Source: an uncultured bacterium (lineage in GTDB: Bacteria > Actinomycetota > Acidimicrobiia > Spongiisociales > UBA4744). Taken from it: 46,201 nt of DNA. The notes under the pieces were generated by a model, which had not been told where the DNA came from, made no database searches, and worked only from the letters and a program-made list of their open reading frames with translations. Below are positions 28,329-44,315 of the stretch, in pieces. Every line of letters starts with the position of its first letter. The first letter of the stretch is position 1. The position numbers were made by a program, and so were the translations under genes. The stretch spans positions 1-46,201 of the forward strand of contig CBEVHI010000001.1 of the NCBI GenBank assembly GCA_965549635.1. Reading direction: 5' to 3'.

Positions 28329-30539
28329 TCAGGAAGACAATGTTGCGATGTCCTCGGGTCGGAGCGGCAGCCGGGTGAGGTCGCGTCCAGTGGCAGCGCG
28401 AACGGCTGCAGCGACGGCAGCCGTTGAAGAGATGGAGGGAAGCTCCGCGAAGCCTTTGGCACCGAACGGACCCCAGCTTCCCGGCTGTTCCACGATGACG
28501 GCTTCCACCGGCGGCATGTCTTCGATCGTGGGAAGGAGGTAGTCGGTGAAGGTCGGGTTCTTGATGACACCATTGTCGAGAATGACTTCTTCGAGAAGCG
28601 CCATCCCGAATCCTTGAGCGATCCCCCCCTCGATCTGTCCAACCACCTGAACCGGGTTCAGCATTCTGCCGACGTCCTGGGCCGTGTCGATCCGCACAAC
28701 CCGCACCAGCCCCAGCTCCGGGTCCACGTCGACGACCGCCCTGTGTGCCGCGACACAGAAGTCGACATGAACGTCCCCCTGGCCGTTCTCATCGGGAGGC
28801 TCCGTGTCGGGATGCCGGAACCGCACCTCGGCCACGATCGGAGCGTCGGCGCAGAGCTCGGCCCAAGATGCGACCAGGCGATCTCCCTTTCTCACGCCTT
28901 CGTCGTCCAGTGTGTCGCCTCCGGCTCGCTCCAAGGCTTGGGATCGTGCTTCTCGAGCGGCTTGCTCCACCGCTCCCCCGGCCATTTGGGTCTGCCTCGA
29001 CGCCGAGGAGGAACCGGCGGAGCCGATGTGGGCGGTGTCGTCCCACACGACTTCCACCCGGTCCATGCCCAGAACGCTCCTGGCGATCTGCATCAGGACG
29101 GTCACCATGCCCTGCCCCACCTCTGCTGCGGCGGTGTGCACCTTGGCACCATCGGCGGTGATCTCCACGCGCGCGTCCGCGAAGTCGTCAAATCCTTCCG
29201 AGAATGCCAGGTTCTTGATCCCGACCGCGTAGCCGACACCTCTCACCACTGCGCCCGGTGGTGTCGTCAGCCCGCTGCCACCGGGGAGACGATCTGTTTC
29301 GTCGCCGGGAAGGGGGATCGCCATCACCGACCGGATCACTTCTTCCGTCGGCAGCGGCTCCGTGATCACCTGCCCGCTGGTGGCGAGGCGGTCACCGGGG
29401 TGCAGGGCATTGCGGAGACGCAGCTCGAGCGGATCCACGCCCAGTGCCGCTGCGAGTCGATCCATCTGTGCCTCGTAGGCAAAGCAGACCTGGTTGGCGC
29501 CGAATCCTCGCATCGCGCCGGTCGGCGGATTGTTGGTTCGTACGGCATACCCTTCGACAAACGTGTTCGGGCAGCGGTACGGGCCGACCGTGAAGTACAC
29601 CGCGTTGGCGAGCACCGCGTCCGTCGTGTTCGCGTAGGCACCACCGTCGAGCAGCAACTTGGCTTCGACGCGCACCAGCGTGCCTGCTTCGTCGCACTCA
29701 TGCCGGTACCACATGTGTGCGCTGTGGCGCTTCACGTGACCGGTGAAACTCTCGAACCGGTTGAACACCATCTTGACGGGACGTCCGGTGTGCAAGGCCA
29801 GCATGCACAAGTGGGTGTGCAGACTCAGATCTTCACGCGACCCAAAGGCTCCCCCGAGCCCGGTCGGGTGGACGCGAACTTGTCCCGGATCCAGTGCCAG
29901 GCATCGCGTGAGCTGTTCGTGGTCGACATGGATCCACTGGGAGGGTGGATACAGATCGACGCCACCTGCGCCGTCGGGGATGGCGATACCGGCCTCGGTC
30001 CCCAGGGGCGCCTGATCGATGTTCGGGGTTTCGTAGTAGCCCTCGATCACTACCGAACCGTGCGCGGCCGGATCGCCCCGGCGGATCGTCATGTGGCGAA
30101 ACACCTCTCCCCTGTCGAGCGCCTCCTCGAGATCTGTCAACGGTTCGAGCGGCTCGAGTTCGACAACGATCGCATCGGCCGCCGCCCGGGCGAGGTCCCG
30201 GTTGTCTGCTGCCACGATGGCGACCGCCTCCCCCCAATACCTGATCTCGCCTTCGGCGAGGACCGGTTGATCCTGGACGATCTGCCCCTGGTAGCCGAAG
30301 CCGGGCACATCGTTCTGGGTGAGGACCGCCTGCACACCCGGCATGGCGAGCGCCGGGGTGACATCGATGGCGACAATGCGGGCTCGCGCAACGTACGCCC
30401 TCCTCGTGGCTCCCCACAACATTTCTTCCGCGTGGAGATCGCCGACATACGCGAAGGTTCCCGTGACTTTCGGTACGCCGTCCGGCCGCTGGACGGACTC
30501 GCCAACGCCACCTCTGACACGACGGTCGACGATGGTCAT
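28329..30539 (-). CDS. xanthine dehydrogenase-family molybdopterin-binding large subunit
   Basis: About 736 aa. N-terminus G.SV.R.DG..KVTG.F.Y..D, with GGAFGSRE and AMRGFG motifs. ATG at 30539 forms an ATGA overlap with the 2Fe-2S subunit stop. Confidence 0.9.
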   Translation of the reverse strand: MTIVDRRVRGGVGESVQRPDGVPKVTGTFAYVGDLHAEEMLWGATRRAYVARARIVAIDVTPALAMPGVQAVLTQNDVPGFGYQGQIVQDQPVLAEGEIRYWGEAVAIVAADNRDLARAAADAIVVELEPLEPLTDLEEALDRGEVFRHMTIRRGDPAAHGSVVIEGYYETPNIDQAPLGTEAGIAIPDGAGGVDLYPPSQWIHVDHEQLTRCLALDPGQVRVHPTGLGGAFGSREDLSLHTHLCMLALHTGRPVKMVFNRFESFTGHVKRHSAHMWYRHECDEAGTLVRVEAKLLLDGGAYANTTDAVLANAVYFTVGPYRCPNTFVEGYAVRTNNPPTGAMRGFGANQVCFAYEAQMDRLAAALGVDPLELRLRNALHPGDRLATSGQVITEPLPTEEVIRSVMAIPLPGDETDRLPGGSGLTTPPGAVVRGVGYAVGIKNLAFSEGFDDFADARVEITADGAKVHTAAAEVGQGMVTVLMQIARSVLGMDRVEVVWDDTAHIGSAGSSSASRQTQMAGGAVEQAAREARSQALERAGGDTLDDEGVRKGDRLVASWAELCADAPIVAEVRFRHPDTEPPDENGQGDVHVDFCVAAHRAVVDVDPELGLVRVVRIDTAQDVGRMLNPVQVVGQIEGGIAQGFGMALLEEVILDNGVIKNPTFTDYLLPTIEDMPPVEAVIVEQPGSWGPFGAKGFAELPSISSTAAVAAAVRAATGRDLTRLPLRPEDIATLSS

Positions 30540-30976
30540 TGCGTCCCCATCACGGCCCTGATGATGGACCCATAGCCGGTGCATCGACAGAGGTTGCCCG
30601 CGAGCGCCTCACGGACGTCCGCCTCGCTCGGGTGGGGATTGTGTTCGAGCAGGTTCGCCGCCGACATCACGATCCCCGGAGTGCAGTACCCACACTGTGC
30701 TCCACCGGTCTCCAGCAATGCCTCCTGAACGGGGTGCAACGTGCCTTCGGAGGTGATCCCTTCAATCGTGACGATCTCGGACCCGGCAGCATCGGCGGCC
30801 ATCACGAGACACGAGCACACCGTCACACCGTCCATGAGGACGGTGCACGATCCACACTCACCCTGCTCGCAGGCGTCTTTTGCTCCATACAGCCCGAGTT
30901 CGTCGCGCAGGAGACGCAGCAGACTCTCCGTACCGGCGGCCTCCACCGTGACCGTCTCGCCGTTGATCCGGAGCAT
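30536..30976 (-). CDS. (2Fe-2S)-binding small subunit of the molybdenum hydroxylase
   Basis: MLRINGE...C.QGECGSCTV....V.SC and the second cluster CGYCTPG....C.C.GY. Start re-set to ATG 30976, which forms an ATGA overlap with the FAD subunit stop. The track N-terminus is an Arg-rich artefact. Confidence 0.92.
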   Translation of the reverse strand: MLRINGETVTVEAAGTESLLRLLRDELGLYGAKDACEQGECGSCTVLMDGVTVCSCLVMAADAAGSEIVTIEGITSEGTLHPVQEALLETGGAQCGYCTPGIVMSAANLLEHNPHPSEADVREALAGNLCRCTGYGSIIRAVMGTQ

Positions 30977-31776
30977 CACAGCAGACGCTCCAGGGTTCTG
31001 CGGGCGATGACACCGACAGCGTGCCGCCGGTATTCGGCCGTTGAGCGATGATCGGTGATCGGCTGCGCCGCCTCGGAGACGAGACGCTGGAACTCGTCGA
31101 GCGCGGTAGTTGTCGGATGGGACTCGGCGGAGATCATCTCCTCCGCTGCGTGCGCCCGGATCACCGTCGGAGCCACTGCTCCGAGAGCAACTCGCGTGCG
31201 GCCGTCGTCGTAGCGGACGACGCACGCCGAGACAACGGCAATCACCATGGCGGCGCGTGGGCCGACCTTGGAGAACCCCTGTCTGGGTGGCAGGTCTTCG
31301 GGCAGCTTCACTCCTTCGATGATCTCCCCCGGCTGCAGGCTGGTCTGCTTGACGCCGACGAAGAACTCATTCCATGGCGTCTCTCTGCGTCCAAGGCGTT
31401 TCGAACGGGTGACGATCGAAGCGTCCATCGCTGCGAGGAACGGCAAGGTGTCGCCGGCAGGGCTGCCGGTGGCGATATTGCCGCCGATGGTTCCCGTGTT
31501 GCGGATCTGCGGTGAACCGATGGTTCGTGCTGCCTCTGCCAGTCCGGGCCATGGACTGTTCTCCAATCGCGCGTGGGTGACCCCGGCGCCAATCCAGTGC
31601 TCGGAGAGACCCAGCAGCTCTTCGACTCGACGAAGGGCGACAACCGAGTCTGGGCGTCGGAACCCGAAGTTGATCTCCACCATCAGGTCGGTGCCTCCGG
31701 CCAGACAGATGGCACCCGGGTCCTGCGCAAGCGCGTCGAGTGCTTCGGTGAGCGCCACGGGCGCCACTATCTTCAA
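30976..31776 (-). CDS. FAD-binding (CoxM/XdhB-like) medium subunit of the molybdenum hydroxylase
   Basis: Only the C-terminal ~266 aa of the 679-aa track ORF look like protein: LAGGTDLMVE, IRNTGTIGGNIA and the CO-dehydrogenase flavoprotein C-terminal region. Start proposed at TTG 31776 (LKIVAPV). GTG 31767 is an alternative. Confidence 0.82.
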   Translation of the reverse strand: MKIVAPVALTEALDALAQDPGAICLAGGTDLMVEINFGFRRPDSVVALRRVEELLGLSEHWIGAGVTHARLENSPWPGLAEAARTIGSPQIRNTGTIGGNIATGSPAGDTLPFLAAMDASIVTRSKRLGRRETPWNEFFVGVKQTSLQPGEIIEGVKLPEDLPPRQGFSKVGPRAAMVIAVVSACVVRYDDGRTRVALGAVAPTVIRAHAAEEMISAESHPTTTALDEFQRLVSEAAQPITDHRSTAEYRRHAVGVIARRTLERLL

Positions 31777-31809: not shown

Positions 31810-32478
31810 ATGAATATCGACGAGACCCTCGGCAGCTGTGAACTCGAACTGGCGGCAGATCGCGGCCCCAACTTGAGAGCGCTCGGGTTCTGGCGTGCCG
31901 TCGCCGAAGTCAAGCGTCGACCCGAGCTCGCGGCGACCTATGCGGACCGCATTGCGGAGATCGACCGTGCCGCGTTTGCACGCTGGGCGCTCGTCACCGT
32001 CCCGCTCGGCCTCGGCACGACACTGATGATCTTGGGTACCGTGCTCGGTCTTGCGGTCACCTCTGCCGGGTACTTCCTCGACTCCCCTTGGAACGGGCTG
32101 GCGATCCTGATCGGGACGGGCATCCTGCTGGTCCCCACCCACGGGTTGGGCCACCTGATCGTCGGCCGTCTCCTCGGCATCGGCTTCACCGGCTGGTTCA
32201 TCGGCACATGGAAGATGCCCCAACCGGGCGTCAAACTGGACTACCGCTCCTACCTGCGCGCCTCTCCCCGGGCTCGAGCATGGATGCATGCTTCGGGGGC
32301 GATCGTCACCAAACTCATCCCCTTCCTGAACCTGGGTGCGGCCTGGGGTGCCGGCGTTCCAGGGTGGACCATGTGGACGCTCGTGATCCTGGGGGTCGTG
32401 ATGATCTTGACCGACGTTCTGTGGTCGACGAAAGCGTCGGACTGGAAGAAGTTCCGCAGAGAACTCCGCTACGTCTGA
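31810..32478 (+). CDS. hypothetical polytopic membrane protein with an HGLGH motif
   Basis: About 222 aa from ATG 31810. It has several clear hydrophobic helices and natural-looking composition. It is divergent from the hydroxylase operon. The minus-strand 679-aa ORF covering it is Arg/Pro/Gly-rich junk in this stretch. Confidence 0.55.
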   Translation: MNIDETLGSCELELAADRGPNLRALGFWRAVAEVKRRPELAATYADRIAEIDRAAFARWALVTVPLGLGTTLMILGTVLGLAVTSAGYFLDSPWNGLAILIGTGILLVPTHGLGHLIVGRLLGIGFTGWFIGTWKMPQPGVKLDYRSYLRASPRARAWMHASGAIVTKLIPFLNLGAAWGAGVPGWTMWTLVILGVVMILTDVLWSTKASDWKKFRRELRYV

Positions 32479-33464
32479 AGCACCGCGGCGCCGTGCACCC
32501 TGCCGTCTTTGAGATCGACGAGCGCCTGGTTCGCTTCGGCGAGCGGGTACACCTGAATCTGGGTGCGGATCGGTATCTCGGCGGCCAGCCTGAGGAACGC
32601 TCGAGCATCGTCTCTGGTGAAGTTGGCGACGCTGCGAATCTGCCGCTCCAACCAGAGATCGTCGTAGCTGAAGGCGGGCATCTGGTCGAGGTGAATGGCG
32701 TTGATCGCCACGACCCCGCCGCGGTCCAGTGACTTCAAAGCCTCGACGACGACCTGCCCGACCGGGGCAAACGTAACCGCAGCATCCAGAGGTACCGGAG
32801 GTCTCTCCTCGTAGGGACCGGCCCAGACGGCACCAAGTTCCATTGCCCGCCGGCGCTCGATCTGCGATCGAGTCGCAACATAGACGTCGCATCCCCAGTA
32901 CAGGGCGACTTGCAACGCCAACAGGGCCGATGCCCCGAACCCATAGAGTCCAAGTCGGCCCCCCGGCTGAATGCCACTCACCTTCAAGGCGCGGTAGCCG
33001 ATCACACCGCCACACAAGAGCGGCGCGACTTCGAGATCGTCCATGCTGTCGGGCAACGCGAAGGCAAGATCACCGTCGACCACCACACGTTCTGCGTACC
33101 CACCATCCCGGTCCCATCCGGTGAAGATCGCCTCCTCGCACAGGTTCTCCCTTCCGGTGGTACAGAAGCGACAACTGCCGCAGAACCCTCCAAGCCATCC
33201 GACCCCGACACGCTCGCCGGGTGCCCACCCACGGACACCCTCCCCAACTCGGAGCACTCTTCCGACAATCTGATGTCCGGGGATCATCGGAAGCTTGTCC
33301 ATCCCGAGGTCTCCCTCGACCTCCTGCAGATCGGTTCGGCAGACGCCGCAGGCGGCAACCTCCAAGAGCAGCTCTCCCTCGCCAGGAGAGGGGTCGGCGA
33401 CCTCTTGCAACGTCAGCGGCCCCGTGTCGACCGCCGCAGGATCGTGCAGCATCTGTGCGCGCAT
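32469..33464 (-). CDS. zinc-dependent alcohol dehydrogenase family oxidoreductase
   Basis: Contains GVCRTDLQ, GHQIVG and the structural-zinc motif C..C..C......C (GSCRFCTTGRENLC), plus a Rossmann G.GA.A loop. Start chosen at ATG 33464 (MRAQMLHDP). Confidence 0.85.
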   Translation of the reverse strand: MRAQMLHDPAAVDTGPLTLQEVADPSPGEGELLLEVAACGVCRTDLQEVEGDLGMDKLPMIPGHQIVGRVLRVGEGVRGWAPGERVGVGWLGGFCGSCRFCTTGRENLCEEAIFTGWDRDGGYAERVVVDGDLAFALPDSMDDLEVAPLLCGGVIGYRALKVSGIQPGGRLGLYGFGASALLALQVALYWGCDVYVATRSQIERRRAMELGAVWAGPYEERPPVPLDAAVTFAPVGQVVVEALKSLDRGGVVAINAIHLDQMPAFSYDDLWLERQIRSVANFTRDDARAFLRLAAEIPIRTQIQVYPLAEANQALVDLKDGRVHGAAVLQT

Positions 33465-33515: not shown

Positions 33516-34988
33516 TCAGCCCAGCTTGGCCAGAAGCCCCGTCTTCTCGTTGAACGCCTCGATGCGGCGATCCATCTCCCCGACCTCACTCTGGATCGAC
33601 GTCCAGTAGTCGTCCTCATACCACTGCGCCTGGATCTCCTCGTAGGTCTTCCCCTGCTGTTCGACCCAGGTGTAGTACTTGAGGTTGTGGATCCGCTTGC
33701 GTCCCCAATAGTCGAGCTCGACCATCGCGTCCGTGGTCGTCCCCATCAGGTAACGCTCGTAGGCGGTCACGGCGTCATCACGCGTGAACTCACCTCGCTC
33801 CTCGTTGAGCTCGGTCAACCTCGACTGGTACATCTCGACGGAGTCGGTGGCGACGGTCATGACGACGTCATGGCCGTCCATTTCGTTCCACTTGGCGAAC
33901 TTGATCGATGACAGCATGTTGGCGATGCTCGAGATCCCCAACAGTGGCAGCTGCTCGACGAATGCCTCCGGCACGCCTCGCTCGACCAGGTAGTCCTGGC
34001 CGACCGGCTCGTTGAAGAGGCGCAGGAGCTGCATCGTCGCCTCGTCGTCGATGGCGGTGACGAAGTCGGTGTTCTTGGCGTTGTGAATCCACGGCACGTG
34101 CTTGTCGCCGATTCCTTCGATGCGATGTGCACCGAATCCGTTGTCGAGCAACGTGGGACATTGCAGCGCTTCACTGGCAACGATCTTGGACGTCGGATAG
34201 TGCTGCTTCATGTAGTCGCCCGATCCGATGGTTCCCGCGGATCCGGTGGTCAGCGCCACGCCTCGATACCGATCACCGGCGTCCATCACCTGCTCGAGAA
34301 CCTCGACCATGGCCGGGCCGGTGATGGTGTAGTGCCAGAGGTAGTTTCCGAACTCGTCGAACTGGTTGAAGATCACGACGTCTTCTCCGGAAGCCTTCAA
34401 CTCCCAGGTCTTGTCGAAGATCTCCTTGACGTTGCTCTCGGTTCCCGGCGTCGCGATCACTTCCCCGGCGACCGTCGCCAGCCACTCGAAGCGTTCCTTG
34501 CTCATCCCCTCCGGCAGGATCGCCACCGAGTCGCACGCAAGCAGATGCGAGTCGTAGGCCCCGCCTCTGCAGTAGTTCCCCGTGGATGGCCAGACGGCTT
34601 TCTGGCTTGTCGGGTCGAACTGGCCGGTCACGAGCCGTGGCACCAGGCAGCCAAACGCAGCTCCGACCTTGTGCGCACCGGTCGGAAACCACTTGCCGAC
34701 CAGCGAGACGACACGCGCTTGGGTTCCGGTGAGCTCCTTCGGATACTCGATGAAGTTGACCCCTCCGAAACCGCCACCGGTGGAGACCGGTTCGTTCTTC
34801 CATGTGATCCTGAACAGGTTGATCGGGTCGAGATCCCAGAGGCCCACACCCTGCAACCTCTGCTTCACCGCGGCCGGAATCAGACGCGGGTCGCGCTGCT
34901 GTGCGAACGTCGGGATGAGGATGCTGCGCTCGATGGCGCGCTGTACGGCCCGCTCCAGCGGACCTTCGTGGACGGTGAGGTCGATCAT
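33516..34988 (-). CDS. fold-type II (CysK/CBS/TrpB-like) PLP-dependent enzyme with N- and C-terminal extensions; specificity unknown
   Basis: About 490 aa. A candidate PLP lysine sits in PTGAHKVGAA, a phosphate loop in TTGSAGTIGSG, and HRIEGIGDKHVP matches the CysK/CBS (I/V)EGIG motif. ATG 34988 is preceded by GGAGAAGGAA. Confidence 0.7.
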   Translation of the reverse strand: MIDLTVHEGPLERAVQRAIERSILIPTFAQQRDPRLIPAAVKQRLQGVGLWDLDPINLFRITWKNEPVSTGGGFGGVNFIEYPKELTGTQARVVSLVGKWFPTGAHKVGAAFGCLVPRLVTGQFDPTSQKAVWPSTGNYCRGGAYDSHLLACDSVAILPEGMSKERFEWLATVAGEVIATPGTESNVKEIFDKTWELKASGEDVVIFNQFDEFGNYLWHYTITGPAMVEVLEQVMDAGDRYRGVALTTGSAGTIGSGDYMKQHYPTSKIVASEALQCPTLLDNGFGAHRIEGIGDKHVPWIHNAKNTDFVTAIDDEATMQLLRLFNEPVGQDYLVERGVPEAFVEQLPLLGISSIANMLSSIKFAKWNEMDGHDVVMTVATDSVEMYQSRLTELNEERGEFTRDDAVTAYERYLMGTTTDAMVELDYWGRKRIHNLKYYTWVEQQGKTYEEIQAQWYEDDYWTSIQSEVGEMDRRIEAFNEKTGLLAKLG

Positions 34989-35004
34989 TTCCTTCTCCAA
35001 TCAA

Positions 35005-35046
35005 TGCGTGCTTCGTACTTCGTACTTTGTACCTCGTACTTCGTAT
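35005..35046 (-). repeat. five perfect-phase plus one degenerate tandem heptad (GTACGAA type) in the ThrC-like/CysK-like intercistronic region; candidate cis-regulatory element
   Basis: Plus strand reads TGCGTGC TTCGTAC TTCGTAC TTTGTAC CTCGTAC TTCGTAT. The mRNA strand reads AUACGAA GUACGAG GUACAAA GUACGAA GUACGAA GCACGCA. The array ends about 17 nt before the RBS/ATG at 34988. Confidence 0.7.
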
Positions 35047-35066
35047 GGCGATAGCGCCAAGCCGGC

Positions 35067-36299
35067 TCACGGGGCTTCCATCACCGCCTGTACGGCTTCC
35101 AAGGTGGGGGGGATCTCGTACGGAGCGCTGCCTGCGCTGCCCGCTGCTCTCACCGCGGACGCAATGTCCTTCAGACCGCTTCCGGTATTGAGCACGACGA
35201 CCCTGTCATCGGCGGTGAGGAGGCCGAGGTTTTGCGCCTTGATCATGCCTGCGTACGCCGCGGCGCCCGCAGGTTCACCGAACACTCCGGCGGCCCTCGC
35301 CATCGCCGGAATCGCGGCCAGAATCTCTTCGTCTTCGACGGTCACGTAGGCACCGTCCGTCTCGATGACCGCGGCCATGGCCTTGATCCGGTCTCTCGGC
35401 AGGCCGGCGGATATGGAGTCGGCCACGGTCTGCGCCTCGATCGCAGGCTTGGTCAGCACATCCTCACCGGACTCCCAGGCCTGGGCCATGTAGCTGCTGC
35501 CCGTAGCCTGGACGCCGATCAGCCTCGGCATGCGGTCGATCCACCCCAATGCGAGCAGATCCTTGAAGCCTTTGTGGAGTCCGCCGATGATGCAACCGTC
35601 TCCGACGCTCACCAGCACGACACTCGGAACTTCCCAGCCGAGCTGTTCGGCGATCTCGTAGGCCGCCGTCTTCTTGCCTTCGCTCATATAGGGGTTGTAG
35701 GCCGTGTTGCGGTTGTACCAGCCGTACTCGTCTGCGACCTGCAAACACAGCTCGAACGCATCGTCATACGAGCCCTGCACAGTAAACACGGTGGAGCCGA
35801 AGACCAGGAGTTGGGCGATCTTGGCTTCAGGAGCAGAGCGCGGAACGAAGATCACATTCTGGAGACCTACCGAAGCCGACAGCCCACTCAGCGCCGCAGC
35901 GGCATTCCCTGTGGACGCGGTGGTGACAACCTCTGCCCCCTTCTCGCGGGCCTTGACGATGGCAATCGCGCTCGCCCGGTCCTTGAACGACGCCGTCGGT
36001 TCCCTTCCGCCGTCCTTGACCCACAGCCGGGCCAGCCCCGTTGCCTGGATCTCGTACATTGGCGTCCAGCCCACTTTCAGCGGAGGAACGGCCGCGTCGG
36101 CTTCAATCGGCAGAAGCGGCCGGTACCTCCACATGGACCAGTCCGCGCCGAGGTCACCCCTGCCGACACGGATCGCGTCGTAGTCGTAGAGCACATCCAG
36201 GATGCCTTCGTTGCCATGGTCGGGACAGACGTACTCGACCTCGTCGGGCGCGTAGACCTTTCCGCAGATCATGCAGCGCAGACCCGTGACGTGGCTCAT
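35067..36299 (-). CDS. threonine synthase-like PLP-dependent enzyme with an N-terminal zinc ribbon
   Basis: About 410 aa from ATG 36299, which forms an ATGA overlap with the carbamate kinase stop. It has a CMICG...CPDHG ribbon, the PLP lysine motif PTASFKDR and a GNAAAA loop. The layout matches short ThrC enzymes. Confidence 0.85.
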   Translation of the reverse strand: MSHVTGLRCMICGKVYAPDEVEYVCPDHGNEGILDVLYDYDAIRVGRGDLGADWSMWRYRPLLPIEADAAVPPLKVGWTPMYEIQATGLARLWVKDGGREPTASFKDRASAIAIVKAREKGAEVVTTASTGNAAAALSGLSASVGLQNVIFVPRSAPEAKIAQLLVFGSTVFTVQGSYDDAFELCLQVADEYGWYNRNTAYNPYMSEGKKTAAYEIAEQLGWEVPSVVLVSVGDGCIIGGLHKGFKDLLALGWIDRMPRLIGVQATGSSYMAQAWESGEDVLTKPAIEAQTVADSISAGLPRDRIKAMAAVIETDGAYVTVEDEEILAAIPAMARAAGVFGEPAGAAAYAGMIKAQNLGLLTADDRVVVLNTGSGLKDIASAVRAAGSAGSAPYEIPPTLEAVQAVMEAP

Positions 36300-37282
36300 C
36301 GCACGATCCGGGTCCCGGTCTCTCCGGCCACACCGCGTTCGATGTTCTCGGGGTTGGTGATCAGCACTTCCTTGCCACCGGCTTCGAGGTAGGTGATCGC
36401 AGCTTCGATCTTCGGAGCCATGCTGCCCTTGGCAAAGTGGGTACCTTCGGCCAGGTAGCTCTTTGCCTCCTCGAGCGTCAGCCGATCCACCCAGCGTTGC
36501 TCCGGCGTTCCCCAACCGAGCGCCACCTTCTCGACGGCGGTGCTGATCAGGAGCAGGTCGGCATCGAGTTCACCGGCGAGCAAGGCGGAGGCACGATCCT
36601 TGTCGATCACTGCGGGGACACCTCGGAGAGCACCGCTCTCGTCGGCAACCACGGGGATGCCTCCCCCGCCTACGCAGATCACGGCCATACCTTTTGCGAG
36701 CAGATCGCGAATCGCCTCGATTTCCACGATACGTTTGGGCATCGGGGATGCAACGACCCTTCGCCATCCGCGACCGGCGTCTTCCACCACGTTCCAACCG
36801 TCGACCGCGCGCCGCTGTGCGGCTTCTTCGGGCTCCATGAACGATCCGATCGGCTTCGTCGGATGCTCGAAGGCCGGATCGTCGACGGCGACCTCGACCT
36901 GGGTCACGACCGTCGTCACCGTCTTGTCGATGCCGAGACTCAGAAAGTCGTTGTACAGGTTCTGCTGGAGTGCGTACCCGATCGCTCCCTGCGTGTCGGC
37001 ACCACAAGCGTCGAGGGGGACCTCGTGCAGTTCGTGCCTTGCCAGCTCAGAGCGCCGGAGAATGAACCCGACCTGCGGCCCGTTCCCATGGGTGATCGCG
37101 ACATCCCATCCGGCGAGAATGAGTTCGGCGATGTGCTGATCGGTCTCGCCCGCCGCTGCATACTGATCTTGCACCGAGCGGTGCTCGGCATCCTTGATCA
37201 GTGAGTTTCCCCCGATGGCCACGACGGCCAATGGACGTTTGGTGCTGCTCAACGAATCTCGCTTTCTCGGTGCCTGGGGCAC
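36296..37282 (-). CDS. arcC: carbamate kinase
   Basis: 328 aa. Motifs VVAIGGNSL and ITHGNGPQVG and the amino-acid-kinase fold continue to the C-terminal GT.I. GTG start. A slightly shorter N-terminus is possible. Confidence 0.92.
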   Translation of the reverse strand: MPQAPRKRDSLSSTKRPLAVVAIGGNSLIKDAEHRSVQDQYAAAGETDQHIAELILAGWDVAITHGNGPQVGFILRRSELARHELHEVPLDACGADTQGAIGYALQQNLYNDFLSLGIDKTVTTVVTQVEVAVDDPAFEHPTKPIGSFMEPEEAAQRRAVDGWNVVEDAGRGWRRVVASPMPKRIVEIEAIRDLLAKGMAVICVGGGGIPVVADESGALRGVPAVIDKDRASALLAGELDADLLLISTAVEKVALGWGTPEQRWVDRLTLEEAKSYLAEGTHFAKGSMAPKIEAAITYLEAGGKEVLITNPENIERGVAGETGTRIVR

Positions 37283-37288
37283 CGGTTC

Positions 37289-38263
37289 CTACATGGTCAG
37301 GGCCATCACGGCTTTCTGTGCGTGGAGTCGGTTCTCGGCCTGGTCGAAGACGACACTGTGCGGACCATCCACGACGGCGTCGGTGACTTCGACGTTGCGG
37401 TCGGCTGGGAGGGGATGCATGTAGATGGCGTCTTCTGCTGCCAGAGCCATGCGCCGTTCGTCGGTAATCCAATCGGTGTACTTGGAACCGATCTCAGCCG
37501 ACTCCGCTTCGTCGGTCGTCGTCAGCATCGCTCCCCAGCTCTTGGCATACACCACATCGGCGTCGCGGAAGCCGTCATCGAAGTTCTCGAGGATCTCGAA
37601 CGAGCCGTTCGATCTGCGGGCGTTTTCCTCCGCCTGCGCGACGATGTCCGGCATCAGTTTGAACTCGGGGGGGCGGGTGAGGCGAACGTTCATGCCGAAT
37701 CGTGTTGCCAGCAGAATCAAGCTCTGTGGCACGCTCAATGGCTTCTGGTAGCTCGACGCATACGCATAGCTCACGTTGAGCGTGCGACCGCGAGGATCGC
37801 CCTTCTTCTCGATGATCGTCATCATGTCGGCGAGGATCTGATGGGGGTGGTACATCTCGCATTGCATATTCAGCACGGGCACCCTGCTCGCCTCGGCGAC
37901 CGCTCGCTGGTAGGCGTTGCCGACACCCCAGTCGACCTGTCGGATCGCTATGCCGGCGCTGTAGCGGCCGAGGATCTCGCCGATCTCCGTTGCCGTGTCG
38001 CCGTGGCTGATCTGCGTCGTGCGGGACTCCATGAACATCGCATGTCCGCCCAGCTGGGCCATGCCGGCCTCGAAGCTCGCCCTCGTTCGAGTGCTGGAGA
38101 AGAAGAACAGCATCGCCAGCACTTTGTCCCTCAGGTAGGCGTGCGGTTCGCCCAGAGCCTGCTTGCGCTTGAGGTCGAGAGCGACACTCAACACGGTATC
38201 GATCTCTTCCTTGGTCCATTCCTGGGTCGTGATCATGTCCCGACCCTTCAATCCGGTCTGCAT
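37289..38263 (-). CDS. ornithine-carbamoyltransferase-fold enzyme of the acetylornithine-CTase/YgeW-like (non-canonical) type
   Basis: 324 aa. It carries the carbamoyl-phosphate motifs SSTRTR, HPHQ and HPLPA. The ornithine-binding D..(x)SMG motif is replaced by DVVYAKSWGAM. Confidence 0.85.
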   Translation of the reverse strand: MQTGLKGRDMITTQEWTKEEIDTVLSVALDLKRKQALGEPHAYLRDKVLAMLFFFSSTRTRASFEAGMAQLGGHAMFMESRTTQISHGDTATEIGEILGRYSAGIAIRQVDWGVGNAYQRAVAEASRVPVLNMQCEMYHPHQILADMMTIIEKKGDPRGRTLNVSYAYASSYQKPLSVPQSLILLATRFGMNVRLTRPPEFKLMPDIVAQAEENARRSNGSFEILENFDDGFRDADVVYAKSWGAMLTTTDEAESAEIGSKYTDWITDERRMALAAEDAIYMHPLPADRNVEVTDAVVDGPHSVVFDQAENRLHAQKAVMALTM

Positions 38264-38312
38264 GCTTGTGCTCCAGTCCTCTCGAGCTGAGTTTCTCTCA
38301 GTCTTTGATCCT

Positions 38313-38392
38313 CGTACCTGGTACCTCGTACGCGACCATCGTCGCCATCGACCGCGGGGCGGGCCGCACCGAGATACCAGGCACCAGGTACG
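38313..38392 (-). promoter_or_regulatory. structured 5' leader: two GUAC-heptad triplets forming a 19-bp imperfect inverted repeat around a 42-nt GC-rich insert
   Basis: The arms at 38313-38331 (CGTACCTGGTACCTCGTAC) and 38374-38392 (ATACCAGGCACCAGGTACG) pair over 19 positions on the minus-strand RNA: 16 Watson-Crick pairs, two G-U pairs and one mismatch. The insert holds the hairpin GCGAC-CATC-GTCGC (38332-38345). A further hairpin, CTGAG-TTTCT-CTCAG, lies at 38287-38301. Confidence 0.6.
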
Positions 38393-38400
38393 TCTTCTTC

Positions 38401-39354
38401 CTACTCCATCGCGCCCAGTACGAGCGAGAGCAGAGCCATGCGCATGACGACCCCGTTGTACGCCTCCTGCCAGTAGCGGGCGTGCTTCGTCGCATCCACA
38501 TCGGGCGGGAGCTCATCCATGCGTGGCAACGAGTGCAGAATGATGGCATCCGACTTCGCCTTGTCCGCAAGCAGCGCTCTGGTGACTTTGTAGTTGTCCG
38601 GCGTCTGACCGGTCTCGCCTGCTCGCTCGTCGCGGCCCTTGGTGTAGTCGGCCTGAACCACCGGCTCCATGTAGATCACGTCGGCTTCACCGATGACATC
38701 GCTGATGTGCTCGGCGGTCCTCACGAAGAGGTTCTGTTCGGCGAGTTCGGCCTTGAAGTCGTCGGTGAGTGACATCTCCGGCGGGGCGACGGAGATCATC
38801 TGGGCGTCGAACTGCGTCAGCGCGTAGCCGAGCGAGTGCATGGTGCGCATGCGCATGTCGCCGATCGCCACGAAGGTCAGGCCGTCGATCGTCCCCACTT
38901 CGGTCAGCACCGTGTAGAGGTCGGTGAGGATCTGCGTCGGGTGCTCGCCCCATCCGTCACCCGCGTTGATGACCGGCACACTGGACCACTTCGCGGCCTC
39001 GTGCGGTGCGCCCTGCTGGAAGTGACGCATGACGATCGCATCGCCGTAGTACTCCAGCATGTGCACGGTGTCCTTGATCGACTCCTGGTAGAAGTCGCCG
39101 GCGCGCGTCATCTTGGCATCCGAGAAGCCCAGCACGTGACCACCGAGACGATGCATCGCAGCCTCGTGGGCCATCCGGGTGCGTGTCGACGGCTGGTAGA
39201 AGGCGGTCAGCAGCGTCTTGTCGGCCAGCAGGTCCGTATTGCGCCGTTCCCGAGCGATCGGTTCCAGTTCGGAAGCCGTCTCGAACACATGCTCGAACTC
39301 GGCCCTCTCAAACCCTTTGAGGGACAGAATGTCCCGCCCGGCGAAACTTCTCAT
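38401..39354 (-). CDS. aspartate-carbamoyltransferase-fold paralog (catalytic-chain-like); second substrate uncertain
   Basis: About 317 aa from ATG 39354, with AAGGAG 6 nt upstream. It carries PSTRTR, MRH, HPTQ and HSLPR and is collinear with class B PyrB. No pyrimidine-pathway neighbours are present. Confidence 0.82.
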   Translation of the reverse strand: MRSFAGRDILSLKGFERAEFEHVFETASELEPIARERRNTDLLADKTLLTAFYQPSTRTRMAHEAAMHRLGGHVLGFSDAKMTRAGDFYQESIKDTVHMLEYYGDAIVMRHFQQGAPHEAAKWSSVPVINAGDGWGEHPTQILTDLYTVLTEVGTIDGLTFVAIGDMRMRTMHSLGYALTQFDAQMISVAPPEMSLTDDFKAELAEQNLFVRTAEHISDVIGEADVIYMEPVVQADYTKGRDERAGETGQTPDNYKVTRALLADKAKSDAIILHSLPRMDELPPDVDATKHARYWQEAYNGVVMRMALLSLVLGAME

Positions 39355-39512: not shown

Positions 39513-40682
39513 GTGGCGAGCGAAAGCACATCAACAGGAGCGGCCAGAGGCTTTCGCGCAGTCGCCGGGTCTCTCTTTCCGATCCTCGCCGTTGTCGCCG
39601 CCCTGCTCCTCGGAGCAGTGATGCTCCTGATCCTCGGTGCCAACCCGGTGACCGGCTTCGGCGCGATGATCGATGGAGCGTTCGGAAGTCTGCGCGCCCT
39701 CTCCGACACGGCAGCGAAGGCCGTTCCGCTGCTCCTCGTCGGCGTCGGAATCACGATCGCCTTCCGAGCGAACGTGATCAACATCGGCGGTGAGGGACAG
39801 ATCATCCTCGGCGCACTGTTCGGAACAGCACTCGCCTTGTTGATGCCCAACCTCCCGGCGTGGCTGCTTCTGCCCGGCGTGCTCTTCGCCGGTTTCGTCG
39901 GAGGCGCCCTGTGGGGGGCGATTCCCGGAGCCTTGAAGGCGTACTTCAACGTCAACGAGATTCTGAGCACGATCATGCTCAACATCGTCGCCGTTCAAGG
40001 CATGAACTTCCTTCTCCGCGGGCCGATGATGGACCCTGCAGAGATCGAGGCCGGCAGCCGCATCCCTCAGACCACCAGACTCGCGGAGGCAGCCGACCTG
40101 CCGGTCCTCATCAAGGGCACGCGACTGAACGGCGGAGTGATCATCGCGGTCGTCGCTGCCGTCGTCGTCTACTTCTTCCTCTGGCGGATGACCTCGGGTT
40201 TCCGGATTCGCGCCGTTGGGTTCAATCCCCACGCCTCCCGCTACGCGGGCATTCACGTGCAACGATCGGTCGTCCTCGCCCTCACCCTCAGCGGGGCGCT
40301 GTGCGGCCTCGCCGGCGTGGTTCTGGTCTTCGGCAGCGAGTCTCACCGGTTCGTCACCGATGGGTCCTCGACAGGGTTCACCGGCAGTGCCGGGTTCAAC
40401 GGCATCGTCGCCGCGCTCTTCGGCGGCCTCCATCCCCTCGGAACGATCCCTGCGTCGTTCCTCTTCGGGGCGCTGCTGGTCGGGGCGAACAAACTGCAGC
40501 GCGCCGTGCAAGTCCCTGCAGCCCTCATCATTGCGTTGAACGGGCTTGTCGTCGTGTTCGTCGTCAGTAGCGCCATCTGGAAGCGGCGCCTCGATCAACG
40601 GTTCCTCTTGAGGGCCGCGACCGCCGACCAGGTCGAAGCCGATGAGGAGGCCACGCAGTCAGGAGCCCCTCCCGATGGGTGA
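39513..40682 (+). CDS. ABC transporter permease (BMP/nucleoside-type, YufP/NupB-like)
   Basis: 389 aa and polytopic. The N-terminal pattern ..ILAVVAALLLGAVMLLILGANP and a central INIGGEGQ motif are typical of the branched sugar/nucleoside permease family. GTG start. Confidence 0.85.
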   Translation: MASESTSTGAARGFRAVAGSLFPILAVVAALLLGAVMLLILGANPVTGFGAMIDGAFGSLRALSDTAAKAVPLLLVGVGITIAFRANVINIGGEGQIILGALFGTALALLMPNLPAWLLLPGVLFAGFVGGALWGAIPGALKAYFNVNEILSTIMLNIVAVQGMNFLLRGPMMDPAEIEAGSRIPQTTRLAEAADLPVLIKGTRLNGGVIIAVVAAVVVYFFLWRMTSGFRIRAVGFNPHASRYAGIHVQRSVVLALTLSGALCGLAGVVLVFGSESHRFVTDGSSTGFTGSAGFNGIVAALFGGLHPLGTIPASFLFGALLVGANKLQRAVQVPAALIIALNGLVVVFVVSSAIWKRRLDQRFLLRAATADQVEADEEATQSGAPPDG

Positions 40683-41607
40683 GTTCTTCACCGCGGCGGT
40701 GCTGGTCTCGACGATCAGTTCCGGAATCCGGCTTGCCACGTCCTACCTCTACGCGGCGATTGGCGAGACGTTCGGGCAACGCAGCGGCGTGCTCAACCTG
40801 GGCGTCGACGGCATCATGCTCCTGGGCGCGTTTGGCGCCTACTACACGGTCCTCAAGACGGGCAATCTGTGGCTCGCTTTGGTGGTTGCGGCCGGTATCG
40901 GACTCATCATGGGACTTGCCATGGCGTTCGCCAGCGTCACTCTGCAGGCCGAGCAGGGGATCAGCGGGATCGGCTTCTACTTGTTTGGCCTCGGCATGAG
41001 CGATCTCCTCTTCCAGAAGCTCGTCGGGACGCCGCTTCCCATTCAAGGCTTCCCTGCCATCCACCTTCCGGTGCTGAGTGACATTCCCGTCGTCGGGGAT
41101 CTGCTCTTCTCCCACAGCCTGATGGTGTATGGAGCGTTCCTGCTCGTTCCGGCAGCTGCCTTCGTTCTCAACAAGACCACCATTGGCCTGAAGATACGAT
41201 CCGTCGGAGAGAATCCCGAGGCGGTCGACACCCTCGGCGTCTCGGTGGCAAAGGTCCGCTACGCGACGGTCATGTTCGGCAGCATGCTGGCCGGAATCGG
41301 AGGGGCAGCACTGGCCACAGAACTCGGGATCTTCCAGCAGAACCTGACGGCCGGACAGGGTTTCATCGCCGTCGCCCTCGTCTACTTCGGCGCATGGCGC
41401 CCCCTCGGCGTGATGCTCGGCGCACTGTTGTACGGATTCGTCGCAGCCATCGTCCTGCAGCTCAAGACGCTTGACGTCATCCCCCGCAGCGCATCGGACC
41501 TTGCGGCAATGCTCCCCGCCCTCATCACGATTCTTGCCCTCGTCGTTGCCGTCCAGAGAGATCGGCAACCGGCAGCACTGACCAAGCCCTATCAAAGAGG
41601 GGAATGA
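40675..41607 (+). CDS. ABC transporter permease (second subunit, YufQ/NupC-like)
   Basis: About 310 aa. N-terminus LATSYLYAAIGETFGQRSGVLNLGVDG is typical. Start set to ATG 40675, overlapping the upstream stop by 8 nt. Confidence 0.85.
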   Translation: MGEFFTAAVLVSTISSGIRLATSYLYAAIGETFGQRSGVLNLGVDGIMLLGAFGAYYTVLKTGNLWLALVVAAGIGLIMGLAMAFASVTLQAEQGISGIGFYLFGLGMSDLLFQKLVGTPLPIQGFPAIHLPVLSDIPVVGDLLFSHSLMVYGAFLLVPAAAFVLNKTTIGLKIRSVGENPEAVDTLGVSVAKVRYATVMFGSMLAGIGGAALATELGIFQQNLTAGQGFIAVALVYFGAWRPLGVMLGALLYGFVAAIVLQLKTLDVIPRSASDLAAMLPALITILALVVAVQRDRQPAALTKPYQRGE

Positions 41608-41630
41608 CCAGACAGAAAGGAAGACACCCA

Positions 41631-42665
41631 ATGCGGAAACTATTGATTATCGGCGTGCTCGTGCTTGCACTCATCGCCACGGCTTGTTCGAGCGGAACGA
41701 CAGAGACCACTGCCGCCCCGGCAACAACTGCGGCGGCCGCCACGACCGCCGCGCCTGCGGAGCCATTCAAGGTTGCGCTGATCGCACCGAGCGCCATCAA
41801 CGATCTGGCGTTCACGCAGAGCATGAACGACGCACTCACCAAGATCCAGAGCGACATGGGCGGCGAATCGGCAATGGAGATTGCGGTCACCGATGGAACG
41901 TTCGTCGTCGAGGACGCCGCCGCGGCGATCCGTGACTACGCCAACGATGGCTACGACCTCGTGATCGCCCACGGTTCGCAGTACGGAGGCTCTCTGAAGG
42001 AGATCGCGCCGGACTTTCCCGACACGTCCTTCGCGTGGGGGACGGCAGGAGACACGTTCGGCCTGCCGAACGTCTTCGCCTATGAGGCCGCATCCGAAGA
42101 AGGCGGCTACGTCATGGGTGTGATGGCAGCTGCCCTGTCCGAATCGGGCGTGCTCGGTGTCGTTGGGCCGATCGAGGTCGGCGATGCCAAACGCTATGTG
42201 GATGGATTCGCGGCGGGAGCGGTCGCCCAGGATGCCGCGGCCGACGTGAAGATCAACTACACGGGGTCCTTCAGCGACGTGGCACTCGCAGCCGAGGCGG
42301 CACGAGCAGAGATCGGCGCAGGTGCCGATGTCCTCACCGGGACCGCGCAGATGGTCGTCGGAGCGGTTGGCGTCGCCAAAGATGACGGTGTGCTGTGGTT
42401 CGGAACCCAGGCAGACCAGACGCAGCTCGCTCCGGACATCGTCGTCGCTTCGCAGGTGTACCACTGGGAGGTCGTCATCCAGGAGATCATCGACCTGATG
42501 GACCAGGGGACGATGGGCGGCAAGTCGTTCTCCGTGGATCTCGCCAACGGTGGTGAGGTCGTCGCCTTCAACCCCGGATTTGACCTGCCTGCTGACGTGA
42601 AGCAACTCGCCGAGGACACGATCGCGGGTATCTCGGACGGATCGATCAACCCGCCACGACCGTAG
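41631..42665 (+). CDS. BMP-family (PnrA/Med-like) ABC substrate-binding lipoprotein
   Basis: Signal peptide with lipobox (LIATAC), an Ala/Thr-rich linker, then FKVALI.PS.INDL.F of basic-membrane-protein-type purine/nucleoside binders. AAAGGAAG RBS precedes ATG 41631. Confidence 0.88.
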   Translation: MRKLLIIGVLVLALIATACSSGTTETTAAPATTAAAATTAAPAEPFKVALIAPSAINDLAFTQSMNDALTKIQSDMGGESAMEIAVTDGTFVVEDAAAAIRDYANDGYDLVIAHGSQYGGSLKEIAPDFPDTSFAWGTAGDTFGLPNVFAYEAASEEGGYVMGVMAAALSESGVLGVVGPIEVGDAKRYVDGFAAGAVAQDAAADVKINYTGSFSDVALAAEAARAEIGAGADVLTGTAQMVVGAVGVAKDDGVLWFGTQADQTQLAPDIVVASQVYHWEVVIQEIIDLMDQGTMGGKSFSVDLANGGEVVAFNPGFDLPADVKQLAEDTIAGISDGSINPPRP

Positions 42666-42678
42666 GGAGAGAACAGGC

Positions 42679-44278: not shown

Positions 44279-44315
44279 GTGACGCTCGACGCGGATAGTC
44301 CGAGCGAAGCGTCAC
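44279..44315. terminator. hairpin between the convergent ABC ATPase and YgfK-like genes
   Basis: GTGACGCT...AGCGTCAC forms an 8-bp outer stem, with partial inner pairing. It spans the 43-nt convergent gap and overlaps the YgfK-like stop codon. There is no clear U-tract. Confidence 0.35.

Follow-up and report, generated by a model that had tools for sequence, protein, structure and literature searches.

Two divergent carbamoyltransferases, a carbamate kinase and two pyridoxal phosphate enzymes in one operon of an uncultured Acidimicrobiia bacterium: a probable variant of the reductive urate pathway

In the present study, we analyzed a 46,201-nucleotide stretch of DNA from an uncultured bacterium of the Acidimicrobiia (contig CBEVHI010000001.1; hereafter the window) and examined five co-directional open reading frames (ORFs) on its minus strand, between positions 33516 and 39354. 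These genes, G1 to G5 in order, encode an aspartate carbamoyltransferase (ATCase)-fold protein, an ornithine carbamoyltransferase (OTCase)-fold protein, a carbamate kinase and two fold-type II pyridoxal phosphate (PLP) enzymes, one ThrC-like and one distantly CysK-like (Table 1). An earlier note on this DNA had listed the same genes in the same order and had proposed a catabolic module in which a ureido compound is cleaved by phosphate with a yield of ATP. Independent gene calls on a near-identical public contig (ENA ERZ26778863 NODE_11, 50.8 kb, locus L003 below) matched all five ORFs. As the note had read, the stop codon of G3 overlaps the start codon of G4 in the sequence ATGA, a spacer of -4 nucleotides (nt), and the G1-G2, G2-G3 and G4-G5 spacers measure 137, 6 and 78 nt. 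Its description of the other junctions as short and structured held only in part: the G1-G2 spacer folds into a long hairpin (minimum free energy -61.6 kcal/mol, z = -5.0; none of 200 shuffles reached this stability), whereas the G4-G5 spacer (z = -0.24) and the spacer behind G5 showed no significant structure relative to shuffles. The five-gene order recurs at 57-96 % protein identity at many loci in several phyla; therefore, the arrangement is not a chance juxtaposition.

Public records label G1 an aspartate carbamoyltransferase. It was observed that G1 retained the carbamoyl-phosphate motifs STRT, R105 and HPTQ and carried the substitutions S80 to R, K83 to D, K84 to Y, R229 to P, Q231 to V and HPLP to HSLP relative to ATCase; the changes in the 80s loop and in HSLP were conserved in 15 of 15 family members. 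Positions 229 and 231 were placed by a HMMER alignment to 1ML4 and by a 52-sequence alignment. A lysine at position 229, suggested by a MAFFT alignment with E. coli PyrB that contained an 8-residue insertion, was rejected, since the other alignments gave Pro and Val at 229 and 231. The suggestion in the earlier note that the aspartate ligands are missing was thus correct for K84, R229 and Q231 but not for the alpha-carboxylate ligand R167, the only one of the PyrB requirements, HPLP included, that G1 retained. The profile scores were mixed, with a pass on TIGR00670 (260.7 against a cut-off of 236.95) and a failure on NF002032 (231 against 263). In a whole-library search the G1 family was tight: two full-length representatives of 50 % clusters scored 515-526 bits, and outside the family the scores fell to about 300 bits, with full-length 50 %-cluster representatives at most 49 % identical. 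In a rough neighbor-joining tree, G1 nested in a large clade that lacks the R-x-Q motif and carries a 'T-R-A-G-D' loop, apart from the true ATCases; this form of the 80s loop is common to G1 and many other relatives without R-x-Q. With STRT and HPTQ retained, the H265-P268 motif altered and the R230-Q232 motif lost, G1 fits the description of the 'pseudo-ATCases' that was given by Barba et al. 2013 (PMC4016543), and its clade corresponds to them. The motif pair of G1 (HSLP; P-V-V) matched none of the three published subgroups exactly.

G2 scored below every NCBIfam cut-off, including those for OTCase (264 against 306) and for N-acetylornithine carbamoyltransferase (AOTCase; 253 against 288), and reached 171-175 bits on YgeW profiles with cut-offs of 453-500 (175 against 453). 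The ornithine ligands were lost by N167 to P, D231 to K, SMG to AML and HCLP to HPLP, and these changes were conserved in 31 sequences; alignment confirmed the earlier observation that YAKSWGAM stands in place of the SMG motif. The segments 'SYQKPLSVPQS' and 'YAKSWGAM' aligned with loops of both E. coli YgeW and the AOTCase of Xanthomonas campestris (PDB 3KZC). G2 has 'SYxKPLSVPQ' and 'Y[AP]KSW' in common with E. coli YgeW, and 'ADVVYAKSWGA', the 'KPL..V..S' loop and the C-terminal 'LP..RNV..TD' in common with the Xanthomonas AOTCase. It also fits the features of the knotted clade, in which a proline-rich loop replaces GDxxNNV and the Lys of Y-A/P-K-S-W replaces Asp231 of OTCase. G2 lacks the insertion in the 80s loop in which AOTCase has Glu92, and it is about 70 amino acids (aa) shorter than YgeW, about 33-35 % identical to it. 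A specifically YgeW-like assignment of G2 was dropped, because the same motifs also occur in AOTCase, and our claim is therefore limited to clade membership. Because its motifs align yet every curated cut-off was failed, G2 is an unnamed short member of the AOTCase/N-succinylornithine carbamoyltransferase (SOTCase)/YgeW clade. G3 passed both carbamate kinase models (TIGR00746, 360.6 against 358.25; NF009007, 386.9 against 266) and shared 50 % identity with E. coli YqeA across 313 aa; such a kinase converts carbamoyl phosphate and ADP to ATP, CO2 and NH3. These results indicated that neither carbamoyltransferase keeps the ligands of its known substrate, aspartate or ornithine, as the earlier note had argued. 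The note had named membership of the biosynthetic PyrB clade as a check, and G1 lay outside the true-ATCase clade; with the ligands also lost, the outcome was in favor of its proposal.

G4 retained the PLP lysine (Lys61) and the S-T-G-N loop (S84-N87). At the presumed phosphate-ligand sites of ThrC, we found T88 to A (53/53), S155 to T, R160 to M/T/L (53/53) and N188 to D (53/53), changes that were invariant or nearly so among 53 sequences. The profile scores of G4 were also mixed (TIGR00260, 186.8 against 167.1, passed; NF006050, 298.6 against 303, narrowly failed), and no other protein of the window was detectably similar to YgeX in the tblastn search (G4, 27 % identity across 151 aa, E 2e-8). 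These results suggested that G4 is a ThrC-fold PLP enzyme without the phosphate pocket. The invariant Asp in the former pocket would suit a leaving group with a positive charge, for example the beta-NH3+ of diaminopropionate. Because of this Asp in the converted pocket and the similarity to YgeX, G4 is the more likely ammonia-lyase, or YgeX analogue, of the G4-G5 pair.

G5 contains a PLP lysine (AHK107VG), an STGN loop, and GSAGT and GISS motifs that were invariant in 12 sequences. Public databases label its family cysteine synthase; however, G5 failed every cut-off, with 83 bits against 351 on the CysK profile and 55 against 510 on that of cystathionine beta-synthase, and its best PDB match was 58 bits. 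Compared with the core of about 300 aa of O-acetylserine sulfhydrylase (OASS), it has about 95 extra residues at the N-terminus and about 95 at the C-terminus. The AlphaFold2 model built from the 12-sequence alignment was poor (mean confidence score pLDDT 60.6), and a Foldseek search with it returned only generic OASS/CysK/beta-cyanoalanine synthase folds, uninformative for the extensions and the substrate. Relatives of G5 are numerous, with more than 8000 close metagenomic sequences and at least 590 loci among contigs taken at one genome per species. The carriers belong mainly to Chloroflexota and Acidimicrobiia and also to Desulfobacterales, Myxococcota, Terriglobia and Halanaerobiales; those most similar to the window come from uncultured Acidimicrobiia (85-87 %).

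We then compared the surroundings of 82 distinct loci with a G5 homologue by tblastn within ±10 kb, with the proteins of the window and those of the E. coli pathway as queries. The tblastn counts are reported here because ORF-based counts of neighbours lost genes to antisense ORFs in GC-rich loci. G4 adjoined G5 in 60/82 loci, which makes this pair the conserved core, and a carbamate kinase was found in 43/82, a G2-type carbamoyltransferase in 38/82 (plus one true YgeW), G1 in 25/82 and a YgeY homologue in 11/82. A HyuA homologue directly followed G5 in 19/82 loci, mostly from Anaerolineae, and at least one purine-pathway neighbour (xanthine dehydrogenase (XDH), YgfK, SsnA, HyuA, YgeY or deaminases) was present in 45/82. 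G1 and YgeY alternated: 24 loci had only G1, 10 only YgeY and one had both. Seven loci had G2 without either of these genes, and all seven were cut at the upstream edge of the fetched stretch or lay near it. A YgeX homologue occurred in none of the 82 loci, whereas G4-G5 was present, in agreement with the earlier suggestion that the two PLP enzymes play the role of YgeX. Two clusters were particularly informative. In locus L063 (Terriglobia), SsnA, a selenium (Se)-dependent XDH-like subunit, YgeY, XDH and YgfK accompany a true YgeW (67 % identical to that of E. coli) in the slot of G2, and G4-G5 stands in the place of YgeX; in L074 (Halanaerobiales), G5-G4 takes that place beside HyuA, YgeY, a G2-like carbamoyltransferase and XDH. 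The pairing of two carbamoyltransferases in one catabolic cluster was less unusual than the earlier note had held, given its presence in 25/82 loci and the pair of Nocardioides sp. JS614 recorded in 2013 (PMC4016543). In L017 and L050, two other divergent OTCase-like carbamoyltransferases (37-44 % identical to G2) replace G1 and G2 beside the kinase and G4-G5; therefore, paired carbamoyltransferases recur in several forms.

The genes around the operon in the window belong to purine catabolism (Table 1). The three XDH subunits were taken from the gene calls on the near-identical contig, and the enzyme scored 734 bits on TIGR03196 pucD. The divergent importer consists of two permeases, a PnrA-like binding protein and a double ATPase and probably takes up purines or nucleosides. 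The YgfK gene, for a large flavo-Fe-S protein known as the 2,8-dioxopurine reductase, runs off the window; its part there (44315-46201) was 99.84 % identical to L003 over 629 aligned residues, an exact-sequence look-up gave the window as a 46201-bp contig distinct from L003, and the full protein on that contig (1184 aa) passed the equivalog model TIGR03315 Se_ygfK (923.5 against 835.3). Upstream of YgfK, the public contig encodes a 340-aa SsnA-like protein, GDT1 and a Se-XDH-like molybdenum (Mo) subunit, the last being cut by the contig end and matching best TIGR03311 Se-dependent XDH (642 bits, below the cut-off of 830). This purine-gene context with its YgfK and SsnA markers supports the view of the earlier note that a purine fragment is the source of the ureide. 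No uricase, hydroxyisourate (HIU) hydrolase, 2-oxo-4-hydroxy-4-carboxy-5-ureidoimidazoline (OHCU) decarboxylase or allantoinase was found in the window, on the contig or among recurrent neighbours, no YgeY match was found in the window by tblastn, and no pyrI, pyrC or arg genes adjoined the operon. The zinc-dependent alcohol dehydrogenase (Zn-ADH) gene behind G5 occurs at this site in L005, L008 and L009, which are close relatives from the Acidimicrobiia, and lies elsewhere or is absent in other loci; it is a lineage-specific accessory gene.

Table 1. Positions of the five operon genes and of other features in the window.
Feature	Position	Strand	Details
G1	39354..38401	-	317 aa; Pfam OTCace_N + OTCace; predicted pseudo-ATCase
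G2	38263..37289	-	324 aa; Pfam OTCace_N + OTCace; predicted AOTCase/SOTCase/YgeW-clade carbamoyltransferase
G3	37282..36296	-	328 aa; carbamate kinase
G4	36299..35067	-	410 aa; Pfam PALP; ThrC-like
G5	34988..33516	-	490 aa; Pfam PALP only; distantly CysK-like
Long hairpin in G1-G2 spacer	38310..38388	-	folding compared with shuffles
GTACGAGGTAC copies	38314-38331 and 35015-35039	-	11-mer search, at most one mismatch
Zn-dependent alcohol dehydrogenase family gene	32469..33464	-	51 nt downstream of G5; TIGR02822 382, cut-off 283.5
222-aa ORF	31810-32478	+	between Zn-ADH and XDH FAD subunit; called on public contig
PucD-type XDH, FAD subunit	31776..30976	-	Pfam FAD_binding_5/CO_deh_flav_C
PucD-type XDH, 2Fe-2S subunit	30976..30536	-	Pfam Fer2/Fer2_2
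PucD-type XDH, Mo subunit	30539..28329	-	Pfam Ald_Xan_dh_C/MoCoBD_1/2
8-oxoguanine deaminase	~26963..28321	+	NF006055 685.5, cut-off 532
Adenosine deaminase	26861..25860	-	NF006850 509, cut-off 419
BMP-family ABC importer	39621..44268	+	divergent; BPD_transp_2 x2, Bmp, ABC_tran x2
YgfK equivalog	44312..46201	-	C-terminal 629 codons; gene runs off window

The reductive urate (2,8-dioxopurine) route was described for E. coli and Clostridium sporogenes by Liu et al. 2025 (bioRxiv 10.1101/2025.04.24.650524) and Li et al. 2025 (PMC12507026). In the published route, XdhD/XdhAC reduce urate to 2,8-dioxopurine, YgfK and SsnA convert this compound to ureidomethyl-hydantoin, and HyuA forms 2,3-diureidopropionate, which carries two ureido groups. 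YgeW with phosphate then releases carbamoyl phosphate, from which YqeA makes ATP, the M20-family enzyme YgeY hydrolyses the second ureido group to leave 2,3-diaminopropionate, and YgeX converts the latter to pyruvate and NH3 (PMC12507026; 10.1101/2025.04.24.650524). Li et al. (PMC12507026) also reported SsnA clusters in Chloroflexota and Actinomycetota, with downstream genes scored by Pfam family, PF00185 as 'YgeW' and PF00291 as 'YgeX'. No description of the present gene set was found in the literature.

On the sequence evidence, we hold with moderate confidence that the operon encodes the ureide-cleaving, energy-conserving lower half of this pathway in an environmental variant. Adenosine deaminase, 8-oxoguanine deaminase (whose product is urate) and the PucD-type XDH would funnel purines to urate, and the second Mo-hydroxylase, YgfK and the short SsnA would reduce and ring-open urate to 2,3-diureidopropionate or a close relative. 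As the counterpart of YgeW, G2 would phosphorolyse one ureido group of this compound, probably the 3-(omega)-ureido, because AOTCase acts on the omega-ureido of an N-alpha-acylated diamino acid. G1 would phosphorolyse the other, probably the 2-(alpha)-ureido of 3-amino-2-ureidopropanoate, and so replace the hydrolytic YgeY. The absence of cationic ligands for the aspartate beta-carboxylate in G1, its K83 to D change and the retained R167 would fit a side chain that ends in -NH3+ or in a neutral ureido group. We can only infer the regiochemical order, G2 on the omega and then G1 on the alpha group, which would agree with Liu et al. G3 would turn both carbamoyl phosphates into ATP, so that each purine could yield as many as 2 ATP rather than 1. 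Finally, G4 and G5 would dispose of 2,3-diaminopropionate instead of YgeX, with G4 the likelier lyase, forming pyruvate and 2 NH3. The inference of the earlier note was largely borne out in this respect: the two successive ureido groups that it expected are those of 2,3-diureidopropionate, and G1 alternates with the hydrolase of the second group. Its statement that the substrate is unknown has been overtaken, as the literature now offers this specific candidate.

The present operon has several features in common with the YgeW-YqeA-YgeY-YgeX route, namely links to YgfK, an SsnA-like protein, Mo-hydroxylases and purine importers, a YgeW/AOTCase-clade carbamoyltransferase paired with a YqeA-like kinase, fold-type II PLP chemistry as the last step and, by implication, the same two-ureido substrate. 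In contrast, YgeY is replaced by a pseudo-ATCase, which would make the second step phosphorolytic, and YgeX by a ThrC-like enzyme with a long CysK-like partner. The known route contains HyuA and a full SsnA, whereas no HyuA was found on the present contig and its SsnA is short. The hosts also differ, with gut anaerobes on one side and environmental Acidimicrobiia, Chloroflexota and others on the other.

For the exchange of YgeY for G1, Rxyl_2847 of Rubrobacter xylanophilus is a close precedent. This ureidoglycine carbamoyltransferase, a pseudo-ATCase of group 1, phosphorolyses allantoate, a diureido acid, and adjoins a carbamate kinase (PMC4016543). Both proteins have the ATCase fold, retain the carbamoyl-phosphate motifs and have lost the R-x-Q aspartate motif. 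Rxyl_2847 acts on the alpha-ureido of a purine-derived diureido acid, takes the place of an M20 amidohydrolase and supplies a carbamate kinase with its product, and the same is proposed for G1. They differ in signature (HPLA; AIA/AIS/SIA in the Rxyl_2847 group, HSLP; P-V-V in G1) and in pathway, that of Rxyl_2847 being oxidative with uricase and allantoinase neighbours and with no second carbamoyltransferase or PLP enzymes reported. The pseudo-ATCase of Nocardioides sp. JS614 (group 2) adjoins a ygeW homologue, xdhABC and hyuA, and no function was proposed or tested for it (PMC4016543). No other earlier report places a pseudo-ATCase with a YgeW-type enzyme beside xanthine dehydrogenase genes in an actinobacterium; PLP enzymes and a carbamate kinase were not described there. 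Compared by the published description, its motif 3, H[ST]LP, is as in G1, and its motif 4, G-x-[SC], differs from P-V-V. With regard to G2, the context of AOTCase is arginine biosynthesis, whereas that of G2 is catabolic, with a carbamate kinase and purine genes. The arginine and agmatine deiminase pathways, in which OTCase or putrescine carbamoyltransferase (PTCase) works with carbamate kinase, also lead from a ureido group and phosphate through carbamoyl phosphate to ATP; they differ in that they have a single carbamoyltransferase and another substrate and lack both PLP enzymes and any connection with purine ring cleavage.

Several observations weigh against assigning the operon to the lower half of the reductive urate route. 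No match to E. coli HyuA was found by tblastn in the window, no candidate was present among the extra genes of the 50.8-kb contig, and none was found within 10 kb of any Actinomycetota locus surveyed, so the ring opening to the diureido acid is unaccounted for on the contig. The short SsnA (L003 15208-16230, past the window end) had the SsnA models as its best match and reached 263 bits against a cut-off of 444; it matched only profile positions 58-361 and thus appears to lack the N- and C-terminal parts. Short forms of 340-355 aa are conserved at 75-86 % identity in Actinomycetota loci, including L008, L045, L077 and L080. In some genomes, L004 and L015 among them, the five-gene module was accompanied only by a GntR regulator, with no purine genes within 10 kb. 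G5 stood alone in 15/82 loci, and in eight of these its neighbours were unrelated housekeeping genes that gave no functional clue. One lyase, YgeX, is enough in the known pathway, and here two PLP enzymes are present. For G4, T88, S155, R160 and N188 (T. thermophilus numbering) were used as the presumed phosphate ligands of ThrC, after Omi et al. 2003; the sole support for the list is that the two aligned ThrC structures agree at all four positions, and a search of open-access text gave no confirmation. The usual substrates of the ATCase, CysK and ThrC folds are L-amino acids, and R (D) intermediates would be unusual for these folds. Such R (D) configured intermediates are proposed for the pathway, and their stereochemical origin was stated to be open (PMC12990295). 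The two 2025 studies also disagree on the regiochemistry of YgeW, one having the 3-ureido group removed first and the other the 2-ureido group (commentary PMC12990295). The HyuA gap, the short SsnA, the GntR-only modules, the lone G5, the R (D) configuration, the extra PLP enzyme and the Zn-ADH are the reasons why our confidence is held at a moderate level, and these misfits allow for another or a further ureide as substrate, or for PLP chemistry other than a lyase reaction.

Both of these options were considered. The same phosphorolysis could act on another or an additional ureide, such as an imported albizziin-like ureido-amino acid, a breakdown product of pyrimidines or hydantoins or a ring-opened compound peculiar to the HyuA-less Actinomycetota variant, with G4 and G5 acting on its amine rather than on diaminopropionate. 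We consider this unlikely, although it would account for the modules that have only a GntR regulator nearby, for the missing HyuA, short SsnA and lineage-specific ADH of the present contig and for the homology of YgfK and HyuA to pyrimidine-reductive enzymes. Purine-pathway genes flank 45/82 loci, however, YgfK passes its equivalog cut-off, and the pattern of exchange with YgeY and YgeW suggests that the chemical steps are unchanged; pyrimidine ureides, moreover, carry a single ureido group and give rise to beta-amino acids, compounds on which fold-type II PLP enzymes do not act. It is equally doubtful that G4 and G5 carry out a salvage by beta-replacement or isomerisation (for instance diaminopropionate to serine or cysteine, or D/L interconversion) or act on a mono-ureido compound with a free alpha-amine, while the carbamoyltransferases work as proposed. 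G4-G5 stands exactly in the place of YgeX in the otherwise canonical clusters L063 and L074, and both ureido groups are already covered by G1 or YgeY and by G2 or YgeW. In favor of such non-lyase chemistry are the conservation of two enzymes where one lyase is enough, the loci with G5 alone and the whole CysK aminoacrylate-forming scaffold in G5, which is typical of beta-replacement. A Peptidase_M55 (D-aminopeptidase) gene between G4 and G5 in L035 (Ardenticatenales; 1656-2465, Pfam E 1.7e-96) also belongs on that side and may hint at D-amino-acid chemistry.

An oxidative allantoin route, with G1 cleaving allantoate as a ureidoglycine carbamoyltransferase, G2 acting as the long-sought oxamate carbamoyltransferase on oxalurate and G3 making ATP from both products, is improbable. 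It would follow the one characterised pseudo-ATCase, Rxyl_2847, which phosphorolyses allantoate beside a carbamate kinase; allantoate likewise carries two ureido groups, and XDH and 8-oxoguanine deaminase make urate. However, the uricase, HIU hydrolase, OHCU decarboxylase and allantoinase genes of such a route were not seen in the window or the contig or among recurrent neighbours, the neighbours YgfK and SsnA mark the reductive route, and the motifs of G1 are unlike those of group 1. G1 also alternates with YgeY, HyuA often follows G5, and the oxidative route has no place for fold-type II PLP enzymes. The public annotation, by which the genes would be ordinary biosynthetic PyrB, ArgF, ThrC and CysK brought together by chance, draws on the database names aspartate carbamoyltransferase and cysteine synthase and on the passes of G1 on TIGR00670 and of G4 on TIGR00260. 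The same two proteins fail NF002032 and NF006050, G2 and G5 fail every cut-off, and the operon has no pyrI, pyrC or arg genes beside it. Because the specificity residues are lost in all four non-kinase enzymes, G1 falls outside the true-ATCase clade and the catabolic synteny with the kinase and purine genes is kept across phyla, this last reading is extremely improbable and was excluded. A narrower form of the reductive urate assignment is put forward tentatively: a distinct dual-phosphorolytic branch of anaerobic or reductive purine breakdown, common among environmental bacteria, in which G1 would have a new specificity for ureido-diaminopropionate and make the hydrolytic step of YgeY a second substrate-level phosphorylation, the PLP pair would act on diaminopropionate or a mono-ureido derivative by a reaction other than that of the YgeX lyase, and the Actinomycetota version would work without HyuA. 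In such a branch the PLP enzymes might act as a stereo-specific pair, form a heteromer or carry out salvage by beta-replacement.

The reductive urate route was worked out only in 2025 and in gut bacteria, and its distribution outside the gut has been scored only at the level of Pfam families. On the assignment favored here, a large set of environmental bacteria would use different enzymes for three of its last four steps, and the operon would represent a new and widespread form of the route that has yet to be characterised. If this is true, functions would be given to three large families that now carry the wrong names aspartate carbamoyltransferase, threonine synthase and cysteine synthase, and a doubled ATP yield per purine is predicted. 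The ATCase-like enzyme for the alpha and the AOTCase-like enzyme for the omega group would also provide an independent handle on which ureido group leaves first, and the pair could serve to test the questions of YgeW regiochemistry and R-intermediate stereochemistry. The genes would further offer alternative parts for engineered urate-degrading probiotics.

The hairpin between G1 and G2 may be a processing, stability or attenuation element. The corresponding spacer of L008 (6726-6823), the closest relative among the genomes, also forms a long hairpin of different sequence (-43 kcal/mol, z = -4.3), and folding of the spacers of L005 and L004 gave no such hairpin. An Rfam scan of the whole window found no riboswitch or other RNA family, and none for this hairpin; a consensus scan of the operon for promoters and terminators found none above the shuffled expectation and none on the coding strand. 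The 11-mer GTACGAGGTAC occurs with at most one mismatch in four copies in the 46-kb window, all of them in the G1-G2 and G4-G5 spacers. The chance expectation is 0.32 copies per window, and 0 of 100 shuffles reached four; the exact 11-mer was not found in the matching spacers of L005 and L008.

The 222-aa ORF next to the Zn-ADH gene is convergent with that gene and divergent from XDH, and its conservation extends to relatives (224 aa in L005). It had no NCBIfam match and, in Pfam, a sub-threshold TetR_C match alone. Positions 1-25000 of the window carry ordinary housekeeping genes, namely those for RelA/SpoT, a phosphoribosyltransferase, SecDF, Tgt, QueA, RuvAB, YebC, PdxS, glycosyltransferase and acyltransferase functions, elongation factor EF-G, citrate synthase, an MMPL transporter, threonyl-tRNA synthetase (ThrRS) and a patatin-like lipase. 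Among the surveyed loci, 24 (Anaerolineae, including L036, L042, L053, L058 and L071) have an ORF of about 315 aa between G4 and G5 that resembles family-2 glycosyltransferases, an assignment made by eye. A 190-aa protein with no Pfam match lies between G5 and HyuA in 22 loci. In addition, Anaerolineae loci have a SelB-like elongation factor a few genes downstream, and in many of them the BMP ABC importer seen in the window separates G3 from G4.

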